Shown: piece after piece, positions 5,108-7,174 of the stretch | How positions within the stretch are numbered: the stretch's first letter is position 1 | Layout of the letters: each line of letters begins with the position of its first letter | NCBI RefSeq assembly: GCF_000014785.1 | Contig: NC_008340.1 | Location: forward strand, 3,090,001 to 3,122,000 | Source: Alkalilimnicola ehrlichii MLHE-1 | GTDB taxonomy: Bacteria; Pseudomonadota; Gammaproteobacteria; Nitrococcales; Halorhodospiraceae | Length of the DNA: 32,000 bases | Reading direction: 5' to 3' | Notes under the pieces: generated by a model | Seen by the model: the letters and a program-made list of their open reading frames with translations, nothing else | The model's database searches: none | What the model was told of the DNA's origin: nothing | Position numbers and translations under genes: made by a program

Positions 5108-7174
5108 ATGCGACCACTGACCCCATACCCCACCCTGGGTGTTCTCTCATCCCTGATCCTCGGCACCGCGGGCACCGCCGTGGCCGACACCACCCCATCG
5201 GCCGAGGCCTTGGAGCCTATCCAGGTCACCGCACCGCGCCTGGAGCGGGATTGGCTGGCAAACCCATCCGCCGTCGGCGTGCTCACGCCGGAGGACATCC
5301 AGCCCGGGCACCAGAATCTGCAGATGGATGAACACCTGAACCGGATCCCCGGCCTACAGATGCAAAACCGCTACAACTTCTCCCAGGATTTGCGGGTCTC
5401 CATCCGCGGCTTTGGCGCGCGCGCGCCCTTCGGTATCCGGGGGCTGCGGGTAATCGTGGACGGGATCCCCGAAACCCTCCCCGACGGGCAGTCCCAAGTG
5501 GACGCCATCGACCTGGAATCGCTGCACCAGGCCGAGGTCATCCGCGGCCCCAGCTCAACCCTTTACGGCAACGCCGCGGGCGGCGTGCTCGATCTCCGTA
5601 CCCAAAGCGGCCGGGATATCGACGGCGCCGCGGTCAAGCTGGATTACGGCAGCGACGACTTCCGGCGCATCGGCCTCAAGGCGGGCGGCGGCCAGGGGCC
5701 TTGGGAGTACAGCGTCAGTACCTGGGATATGCGCTACAACGGCTACCGGGATCACAGTCGGGTGGAGAAGCGCCTGTTCAACAGCAAGCTGGCCTATGAA
5801 TGGGCTGATGGCGGACGCCTGGAGACCATCGTCCGCCTGTTGGATGCCCCGGACACCCAGGATCCGGGCTCCCTGACCCTGGACCAAGTGGATGAGGACC
5901 GCCGGCAGGCACGCCCCGAGTCAAAGGCACTGGATGGCGGCCAGTCCGCCGAGCAGCAGACGGTGGGCCTGGTCTACTCGCGTCCCATGGCCGCCCAGGA
6001 CGAAATCACCCTGCGCGCTTTCTACACCCGCCGCGATTTCGGCAATCGACTGCCCTTCGAGAGCGGTGGTCAGGTTCAGTACGAGCGCGACTTTTACGGC
6101 CTGGGCGGCCAATACACCCATCTCAACGAAGTGATGGGGCGCCCCGCCCGGCTCGGCGTAGGCTTCGACGCCGAGGAACAGCGCGACGACCGCCAGCGCT
6201 TTGACAATCTGGCCGGCGGGGCGCGCGGTGACCAGACCTTCGACCAGCGGGAAAAGGCGCGGACCCTGGCGCTCTTCAGCCAGGGCGATCTCGCCCTGAC
6301 CGACCGGTTGGACCTCGTCTTCGGAGCGCGCTTCGACCAACTGCGCATCGCCGTCGATGACCGATTCCAGCCGATGGGTGAAGACCGCTCCGGGCGTGAG
6401 ACCTTCAACGAGTGGAGCTACAGCACCGGTCTGAGCTACCGCTGGGCCCGCGCCCACCAGATCTACGCCAACGTCGGCACATCCTTCGAGAGTCCCACCT
6501 TCACCGAGTTCGCGAATCCCGACGGTGGCACCGGGTTCAATCCCGACCTGAAACCCGAAAAGGCCGTCAACTACGAGCTGGGCGCCAAGGGGTTCATCGG
6601 CGATCACAGCCGTTACGAGCTGTCGCTTTACACCATTCGCGTCCGCGATGAGATCGTTAATTTCCAGCGGGACGCCGGTCGCGACTTCTACGAGAACTCA
6701 GGCCGTTCCCGCCGTAACGGCCTGGAACTGGGCCTGGAACACCGCCCCGCAGACCAATGGGTCCTGACCGCCGCCTACACCTACACCGACTTTGAGTTCC
6801 GCGACTTTGAAGACCGGTTCGGTAATGACTTCAGCGGCAACGCCTTCCCCGGCGTCCCGCGCCAACAGTTATTCGCCGAGGCGGCGTGGCAGGATCGCGA
6901 GGGCCGCTTTGCCGCCCTGGATGTCGTTGCCGTTGACCGGCAGTACGCGGACAACGCCAACGAGGAGCGGGTATCGGGCTACGGGGTCGCCAACCTCCGC
7001 GCCGGCACCCGGCTAAGGCTGCAGGGCCTGGAGGTCTCGCCCTATGTGGCGGTGAACAACCTTTTCGACAAAGAGTACTTCAGCAACATTCGCATCAATA
7101 CCTTCGGCGGGCGCTTTTATGAGCCCGCCCCCGAGCGCACTGTCTTCGCCGGCGTTACCATCCGCCCCCGATAG
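5108..7174 (+). CDS. TonB-dependent receptor, YncD/PqqU-like subfamily (candidate PQQ or metal-chelate importer)
   Basis: 688 aa. Signal peptide ...GTAGTAVA, TonB-box-like EPIQVTAPR. Plug region [50 protein letters not shown]...[16 protein letters not shown]. C-terminal NLFDKEY...[21 protein letters not shown]. The subfamily call rests on remembered resemblance to E. coli YncD and is not computed. Confidence 0.85.
   Translation: [688 protein letters not shown]

Follow-up and report, generated by a model that had tools for sequence, protein, structure and literature searches.

The gene at positions 5108..7174 of a 32,000-nucleotide stretch of the Alkalilimnicola ehrlichii MLHE-1 genome (contig NC_008340.1, positions 3,090,001 to 3,122,000; this whole stretch is referred to below as the window) encodes a TonB-dependent transporter of the PqqU family that most probably imports pyrroloquinoline quinone (PQQ), the substrate being assigned from comparative evidence. 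Taken as a whole, it appears likely that a PqqU-type transporter importing PQQ is encoded here as the last cistron of a sigma-54-driven unit that consists of the acetaldehyde dehydrogenase gene exaC, a DUF779 gene and the receptor gene. A preliminary description, made from the DNA alone, had proposed a PqqU-like importer that links PQQ uptake to the alcohol regulon, and this proposal is now supported by similarity, predicted fold, signature residues, linkage to PQQ enzymes and the positions of the promoter and the terminator. An exact-sequence look-up matches the translation to ABI58068.1 / WP_011630461.1 from A. ehrlichii MLHE-1 (Chromatiales, Ectothiorhodospiraceae in the NCBI taxonomy), which the source databases name "TonB-dependent receptor" or "TonB-dependent receptor family protein".

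5108..7174, plus strand: PqqU-family TonB-dependent transporter gene with an ATG start; the product of 688 amino acids comprises a signal peptide, a TonB-box-like EPIQVTAP, a plug and a barrel.

This open reading frame (ORF) is real, and both peptide motifs quoted in the preliminary description are found in its translation. By eye, the N-terminus resembles a signal peptide ending in GTAVA/DTT and is followed by the TonB-box-like motif; the Pfam matches are the Plug domain (E-value 1.8e-17) and the TonB-dependent receptor barrel (E-value 3.7e-52), so that the protein displays the architecture of a TonB-dependent transporter, with signal peptide, TonB box, plug and 22-strand barrel. A phmmer search against solved structures identifies YncD (6v81, E-value 5.4e-104) and PqqU (9c4o, E-value 1.3e-103), with the next receptor at 3e-18. 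The top NCBIfam model is TonB_rec_PqqU, with 438.9 bits over positions 13-671 of 676, and the second, a TonB-siderophor subfamily model, scores 203 bits, below its cut-off. An AlphaFold model of the receptor, built from 17 relatives, has a mean predicted local distance difference test score of 75 and a predicted template modelling (TM) score of 0.81; some of the plug is modelled with low confidence. A Foldseek search started with this model identifies the PqqU-PQQ complex 9c4o as the best match (E-value 4e-53, TM-scores 0.85 and 0.88), followed by 6v81 and then by FhuA (7.5e-31). The YncD/PqqU resemblance noted in the preliminary description is thus far above chance, and PqqU is the only close characterised relative, all others being far behind.

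In a neighbour-joining tree, the receptor falls inside the PqqU group together with the E. coli and Rahnella PqqU, and the copper-type receptors remain outside. The group splits into an enterobacterial/Ideonella branch with lysine at position 274 (E. coli numbering) and a branch with glutamine or glutamate at this position. The published PqqU census already includes members of the latter branch from Halomonas boliviensis and Marinobacter nitratireducens. The family is known, widespread and recently described, and the receptor adds a member to it. In a plasmid search, the name pqqU given by the Prokaryotic Genome Annotation Pipeline was seen only on enterobacterial records, from E. coli, Klebsiella and Rahnella, whose proteins are 31-33% identical to the receptor.

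The published PqqU signature consists of Y/F/W99, R304 and R365; K274 and R536 are important but less conserved, and K274 is not part of the family definition (Munder et al. 2025, PMC12124388). The PQQ contacts were mapped in three ways, namely with the pairwise phmmer alignment, with a MAFFT alignment that comprises E. coli PqqU, the window receptor and 82 clade members, 84 sequences in all, and with a second MAFFT alignment that includes full-length E. coli PqqU, in which seven checked positions agree with the published residues. The correspondences are as follows.

E. coli PqqU Q84: receptor Q93.
E. coli PqqU Y99: receptor F108.
E. coli PqqU Q121: receptor Q130.
E. coli PqqU K274: receptor Q279 (window positions 5942-5944).
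E. coli PqqU R304: receptor R309.
E. coli PqqU R365: receptor R362.
E. coli PqqU R536: receptor R525.

In all three alignments, the signature is represented by F108, R309 and R362. Its positions are nearly invariant among the 84 sequences: position 99 is phenylalanine in 83 and tyrosine in one, R304 is present in 81 and R365 in all 84. Position 274, in contrast to E. coli PqqU, is Gln279 in the receptor; it is glutamine in 53 and glutamate in 29 of the 84 sequences and never lysine in the clade of the receptor, and among the aligned sequences lysine occurs only in those from E. coli, Rahnella and Ideonella. The glutamine, common to most of the clade, seems to be a modestly unusual trait. As a negative control, two copper-type relatives, 27% identical to the receptor, lack Q84, Q121, R365 and R536; both adjoin DUF2946 genes, and one also adjoins a gene for a copper-uptake-associated protein.

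The genomic context points in the same direction. Two PQQ enzymes are encoded in the window, as the preliminary description had it, which is a supporting rather than a defining property of PqqU-bearing genomes:

7561..9369, plus strand: PedH-like PQQ-dependent ethanol dehydrogenase (ABI58069.1; best solved structure 6zcw, E-value 1.3e-233; TIGR03075, 773 bits).
15865..17238, minus strand: soluble PQQ-dependent glucose/sorbosone dehydrogenase (Pfam GSDH, E-value 3.3e-122).

The biosynthesis genes pqqABCDE were sought with a PqqA pattern and with tblastn searches started with PqqB-E from Methylophaga, both with a positive control. None was found in the window, in the locus L093 or near any of 80 related receptors, so that the earlier statement that the window lacks these genes holds for the window and for about 8.8 kb to its left. 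The lack of pqq synteny near the receptors agrees with that reported by Munder et al. (PMC12124388).

The 80 related loci come from a pattern scan of species-representative genomes, with MLHE-1 itself outside the sample; their receptors are 36-64% identical to the window receptor, and the neighbourhoods were compared by tblastn with the window proteins and by clustering of the flanking ORFs. At 13 of the 80, a PQQ enzyme is encoded within 10 kb of the receptor gene:

8 loci: membrane-bound Gcd-type PQQ dehydrogenase near the receptor (the representative matches TIGR03074 with 1096 bits, the cut-off being 833; the other seven are assigned by cluster membership).
3 loci: soluble sugar dehydrogenase near the receptor (L003, L005 and L006).
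2 loci: PQQ alcohol dehydrogenase near the receptor (L047 and L055).

In addition, the receptor gene on an Alteromonas plasmid lies 6 kb downstream of a PQQ alcohol dehydrogenase gene, and on a Rahnella plasmid pqqU is directly upstream of the gene for a Gcd-type enzyme. Every receptor found beside a PQQ enzyme is of the glutamine type at position 274. In Marinobacter segnicrescens, the alcohol dehydrogenase beside the receptor reads WDYTS, the calcium type, which lacks the second aspartate of the lanthanide enzymes; because of this enzyme, the linkage of the receptors is not specific to lanthanide enzymes. The PQQ enzymes near clade receptors belong to two unrelated folds, and what they have in common is PQQ. 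A link of PqqU genes to three classes of PQQ enzymes was not found stated in the PqqU literature examined. The name Alkalilimnicola was not found in the accessible portion of the text of the supplements of Munder et al., and a literature search on Alkalilimnicola and PQQ found no paper mentioning the genus.

The gene order of the window, namely exaC, DUF779, receptor, alcohol dehydrogenase, cytochrome c550, binding protein, SoxYZ-like protein, metallohydrolase and CXXCW protein, is the same in a metagenome-assembled genome (MAG; locus L082) whose receptor is 87% identical to that of the window. At another locus (L083), with a receptor 70% identical, the receptor gene stands alone, and its direct divergent neighbour is a homologue of the porin-like gene of the window. 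The gene also stands alone in Ectothiorhodospira haloalkaliphila; these two cases suggest that the exaC-DUF779 pair entered, or was lost from, the interval that separates the porin gene from the receptor gene.

A separate observation concerns the locus L062, from the species-representative genome titled Alkalilimnicola ehrlichii strain AK92. Its receptor is only 45% identical to that of the window and belongs to the E274 type, and none of the other window genes was found within 10 kb of it; this strain may represent a different species, or the island may be absent from it.

The predicted transcription unit and its presumed regulator comprise the following elements.

2873..2887, plus strand: sigma-54-type -24/-12 element TGGCCCAACCCTTGC, 138 nucleotides 5' of the exaC ATG, with one mismatch to TGGCAC-N5-TTGC.
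3025..4545, plus strand: exaC, NAD-dependent acetaldehyde dehydrogenase (ABI58066.1; NCBIfam AcaldDHExaC, 973 bits, cut-off 900).
4559..4581, plus strand: hairpin between exaC and the DUF779 gene, with the stem GCGGGCGGC / GCCGCCCGC.
4661..5041, plus strand: DUF779 protein, a cytoplasmic protein that usually accompanies ExaC (Pfam DUF779, E-value 6.9e-51; 126 amino acids, no signal peptide).
7192..7225, plus strand: G+C-rich terminator-like hairpin, 18 nucleotides after the receptor stop.
7466..7480, plus strand: sigma-54-type -24/-12 element TGGCATAGCTGTTGC before the alcohol dehydrogenase gene, 81 nucleotides 5' of the start at 7561.
13784..15820, plus strand: sigma-54 enhancer-binding protein of DhaR/AcoR-like architecture (Pfam Sigma54_activat and HTH_8).

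The sigma-54-type sites were sought over the whole window as TGGCAC-N5-TTGC with at most one mismatch. The promoter that the preliminary description placed ahead of the aldehyde dehydrogenase gene would correspond to the promoter-like element at 2873-2887, and the site before the alcohol dehydrogenase gene is retained in L082 as the perfect consensus TGGCACAGCCGTTGC. Together with a nearby gene for an enhancer-binding protein, which aligns over its full length to the DhaR model with 305 bits, below the cut-off, these elements have the composition of a sigma-54 operon; the protein encoded at 13784..15820 is presumed to be the activator of both sigma-54-type promoters. Of the four sigma-54-like sites of the window, two are on the plus strand and occupy the only two upstream regions of relevance (Poisson P of about 0.001), and because the total count is at the level of chance, only this placement is informative.

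The gap between the end of the DUF779 gene at 5041 and the receptor start at 5108 is exactly 66 nucleotides (5042-5107), as noted before; it holds the region of the ribosome-binding site (RBS), with GGAG at 5096-5099, and both the gap and this region are conserved in L082. A strict promoter scan made no sigma-70-like call anywhere in 2400-9600, in agreement with the earlier statement that the receptor gene has no recognisable promoter of its own. With respect to a possible independent Fur-regulated promoter, there is no credible Fur box: the best candidate, with 10 of 19 matching positions at 5097, overlaps the RBS and lacks conservation in L082, and matches as good as this occur frequently in the window. 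The hairpin at 7192-7225 is strong, with -45 kcal/mol for a 96-nucleotide segment (z = -3.0), and in L082 a different hairpin occupies the same position after the receptor gene and is followed by TTTTTTGTAT. Of the terminator described earlier, the hairpin accordingly stands, and the U tract is weak: the tail is the poor UCCUUUGCUU, and a strict terminator scan of 2400-9600 gave no calls. Given the 66-nucleotide gap, the lack of a detected promoter and a terminator-like hairpin only after the receptor gene, cotranscription with exaC is inferred as the most economical reading.

The hairpin between exaC and the DUF779 gene, which had gone unnoticed in the preliminary description, is retained in L082 with one compensatory and one wobble change. 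Its role could be that of a partial terminator or attenuator of read-through, or else it could affect the processing or stability of the exaC message.

A separate observation is that the motif GTGWCAC occurs four times in the window, and that three of these copies, at 2660-2666, 2769-2775 and 2803-2809 on the plus strand, fall within the 230 nucleotides ahead of the sigma-54-like promoter of exaC. They may be activator binding sites, but their total number is at the level of chance.

Under the proposed mechanism, free PQQ would be captured from the medium in a pocket between plug and barrel formed by F108, R309 and R362 with Q93, Q130 and R525, and TonB-supplied energy would drive its release into the periplasm. 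There, PQQ would load the adjacent PedH-like alcohol dehydrogenase and the soluble sugar dehydrogenase encoded 9 kb away. The exaC-DUF779-receptor transcript would start at the sigma-54 promoter at 2873-2887 and end at the hairpin at 7192-7225, so that PQQ import would be switched on together with the oxidation of alcohol and aldehyde. The likely activator is the DhaR/AcoR-like protein encoded at 13784-15820, which would respond to alcohol or acetaldehyde, the inducing signal being deduced from the context. A precedent is found in Pseudomonas aeruginosa, in which the acetaldehyde-sensing EatR drives the sigma-54 promoter of an acetaldehyde dehydrogenase operon (PMC5821096).

Several observations weigh against this reading. 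With respect to the substrate, the 438.9 bits of the receptor fall short of the 1200-bit cut-off of the NCBIfam PqqU equivalog NF041535. Lanthanide-importing receptors, too, are reported to find YncD as their best solved structure (bioRxiv 10.64898/2026.07.10.737718), and because of this, similarity alone cannot decide the substrate. The K274E substitution impairs E. coli PqqU (Munder et al. 2025, PMC12124388), and the receptor has glutamine at this position. In E. haloalkaliphila, the closest named relative (64%), the receptor gene is surrounded by housekeeping genes, and no PQQ enzyme is encoded in its vicinity. With respect to the transcription unit, the window contains four sigma-54-like sites against 2.95 expected, that is, no enrichment; the hairpin after exaC could terminate much of the transcript; and a promoter may lie inside exaC or the DUF779 gene. 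Finally, regulation has been studied in a single PqqU, PA2289 of P. aeruginosa, and this one is expressed constitutively, with no response to PQQ, to ethanol or other carbon sources, or to iron.

The points on transcription can be combined into the alternative that the receptor imports PQQ but is transcribed alone and constitutively, as in P. aeruginosa, so that the exa neighbourhood carries no regulatory meaning. The behaviour of PA2289, the conserved hairpin after exaC, the solitary genes in L083 and E. haloalkaliphila and the chance-level number of sigma-54-like sites are all compatible with this possibility. Nevertheless, the short gap with the RBS inside and no promoter-like element, the retention of gap and gene order in L082 and the position of the terminator only after the receptor gene argue for cotranscription, as do the independent cases of receptor genes located behind genes for alcohol or aldehyde dehydrogenases (L055, L047 and Alteromonas). 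Separate constitutive transcription accordingly appears rather unlikely, albeit worth keeping in mind.

Another alternative is that the receptor imports a complex of PQQ with Ca2+ or Ln3+, in which case Gln279 would leave space for the ion and contribute to its coordination, both cofactors of the alcohol dehydrogenase being supplied at once. Metal co-transport has been proposed for homologues with Glu274 from Chai-1 models, in which, however, the modelled metal is of low confidence, so that the idea is speculative even for the glutamate variants (Munder et al. 2025, PMC12124388). The absence of lysine from position 274 throughout the clade and the lanthanide type of the neighbouring alcohol dehydrogenase fit this scheme; on the other hand, glutamine is a weaker ligand than glutamate, and receptors of the glutamine type also accompany enzymes that are not of the lanthanide type. 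Import of a PQQ-metal complex is therefore considered quite improbable. The same applies to the most far-reaching version of the model, a long shot in which PQQ scavenging is induced by alcohol or acetaldehyde through the sigma-54 operon rather than being constitutive and, in addition, the Gln-274 pocket takes a complex of PQQ with a lanthanide or calcium. If true, a single inducible outer-membrane gate would deliver both cofactors of a PedH-type alcohol dehydrogenase to an organism that possibly makes neither.

The preliminary description offered import of a lanthanide or lanthanide chelate, by a receptor of the LutH / LanA-like type, as an alternative that would serve metallation of the PedH-like alcohol dehydrogenase. 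The D-x-D signature reported for this enzyme is present as WDYDG, the lanthanide-type motif; because the enzyme is also closest to the lanthanide-dependent PedH, A. ehrlichii probably needs lanthanides. Lanthanide receptors are homologous to PqqU, have been misannotated as YncD and occur in clusters with PQQ- and lanthanide-dependent dehydrogenases; they reportedly lack the PQQ-binding residues and adjoin a small secreted cargo protein of about 120 amino acids and/or pqq genes (bioRxiv 10.64898/2026.07.10.737718). The homology, the lack of conservation of K274, and the presence of a MoxY/PedS-type sensor kinase gene just outside the window could be taken to favour such a role. However, the window receptor possesses the three signature residues and the three further contacts, all nearly invariant in the clade, by which it is set apart from the LutH / LanA type as described. 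Furthermore, members of the clade adjoin Gcd-type enzymes, soluble sugar dehydrogenases and the calcium-type alcohol dehydrogenase of M. segnicrescens. Neither a secreted cargo protein nor pqq genes are found beside the receptor gene. The 126-residue DUF779 protein encoded upstream was considered as a candidate cargo protein and rejected, given that it is a known Pfam domain and lacks a signal peptide. Lanthanide import by the receptor thus runs counter to the evidence and is regarded as very unlikely.

The preliminary description also assigned this possible role to a partial receptor at the edge of the window:

928 to 1, minus strand: N-terminal part of a second TonB-dependent receptor, which continues outside the window (full gene L093:11513-13642, 709 amino acids).

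This gene exists and lies on the minus strand, but its product is FecA-like (E-value 7e-22) rather than PqqU-like (only 2e-5), so that an identification as a lanthanide receptor of the LutH type is not supported by the criterion that PqqU should be the best solved match. It follows the porin-like gene and adjoins the MoxY/PedS-type sensor kinase gene and a gene for a LuxR-type regulator. In a Methylophaga MAG, the gene for a homologue 49% identical to the second receptor is surrounded by pqqABCDE, genes for a comparable pair of regulators, SoxYZ-like and MoxR-type genes and the gene for a PQQ dehydrogenase, and in Marinobacter and Methylohalomonas the context of the homologues is not quinoprotein-related. 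It is possible that the second receptor is lanthanide-related or a receptor for another cofactor, of an undescribed type, which is a lead rather than a finding. Separately, in Candidatus Thiodiazotropha (L034:7783-12019), the gene for a PqqU-like receptor is immediately preceded by genes for a MoxY/PedS-like kinase (34% identity) and a LuxR-type regulator (46%), so that the PqqU type is accompanied there by the pair of regulators seen beside the second receptor of A. ehrlichii.

That the receptor transports a siderophore, iron or copper and is present in the cluster by accident is extremely unlikely. The generic label "iron complex outer membrane receptor", used by some sources, and the below-cut-off TonB-siderophor match would fit this reading, but there is no Fur box, the E-values of siderophore receptors (3e-18 at best) exceed that of PqqU by 85 orders of magnitude or more, the copper-type relatives lack the pocket residues and their DUF2946 and copper-chaperone neighbours are absent from the window, and PqqU is reported to be neither Fur-regulated nor iron-transporting.

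Among the remaining genes of the window, those located downstream of the alcohol dehydrogenase gene complete the quinoprotein cluster:

9470..13318, plus strand: quinoprotein accessory genes, namely cytochrome c550 PedF, a solute-binding protein, a SoxYZ-like carrier, a relay metallohydrolase 1 and a CXXCW protein.

The matches of PedF, the SoxYZ-like protein, the metallohydrolase and the CXXCW protein are above the NCBIfam cut-offs; the solute-binding protein matches Pfam SBP_bac_3, and its NCBIfam matches are below the cut-off. The mechanically called ORF of the alcohol dehydrogenase starts with a TTG at 7477, inside the sigma-54-like promoter; the true start is the ATG at 7561 behind a strong RBS, which gives the 602-residue product found in the databases. 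At 15865-19593 on the minus strand, the sugar dehydrogenase gene is followed on the same strand by genes for a tungstate/molybdate-type ABC transporter, whose binding protein is of the PBP_like_2 kind and whose permease matches TupB below the cut-off. The product of the ORF at 22521-25922 (plus strand) ends in a putative regulator domain pair, HTH_17 and PBP_like. The gene at 1196-2440 on the minus strand encodes a secreted protein of 414 amino acids with a C-terminal phenylalanine, a weak match to an outer-membrane beta-barrel (E-value 3.7e-4) and no solved relative; homologues are encoded divergently to the receptor in L083 (68%) and after the receptor in Alcanivorax (L047, 29%). This protein may be a porin that travels with the receptor clade.

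These observations assign a specific predicted function to a generically named receptor of a well-known arsenite oxidiser from Mono Lake. They lead to the prediction that ethanol oxidation by A. ehrlichii depends on external PQQ at nanomolar levels, which matters for cultivation and for cross-feeding in soda lakes. The linkage of PqqU to three classes of PQQ enzymes could serve as a cheap extra criterion for distinguishing importers of PQQ from importers of lanthanides. The receptor would exemplify a PqqU under substrate-inducible control beside its client enzymes; such expression, as predicted from the arrangement of genes and sites, would be modestly unusual, and the findings on the receptor do not overturn the current understanding.

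Among the known systems, E. coli PqqU (YncD; 6v81 / 9c4o) has the same fold as the receptor, with TM-scores of 0.85-0.90 and 33% identity over the full length. The loop residues Q308, Q310, N477 and Y481 of the E. coli protein are different or gapped in the receptor, and E. coli pqqU is a stand-alone gene beside yncE, whereas the A. ehrlichii gene lies within a predicted exaC operon, next to the gene for a client enzyme. P. aeruginosa PqqU (PA2289) supplies imported PQQ to the ethanol dehydrogenase ExaA and to Gcd; compared by description, it is constitutive in an organism that also makes PQQ, whereas the architecture of the window predicts expression dependent on sigma-54 and alcohol. The ped and exa clusters (pedH and pedF of Pseudomonas putida, exaABC of P. 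aeruginosa) share with the window the PedH-like alcohol dehydrogenase, PedF, ExaC and the SoxYZ-like, metallohydrolase and CXXCW accessory genes; the window differs in that its promoters are of the sigma-54 type and its activator is DhaR/AcoR-like. No PqqU gene is known from within the aldehyde dehydrogenase operons of these model clusters. The EatR / PA4022 operon of P. aeruginosa, unlike the window unit, serves the use of ethanolamine and includes no outer-membrane transporter, but, like it, combines a sigma-54 promoter before an operon led by an acetaldehyde dehydrogenase gene with a nearby gene for an enhancer-binding protein, which in the case of EatR is an acetaldehyde sensor (PMC5821096).

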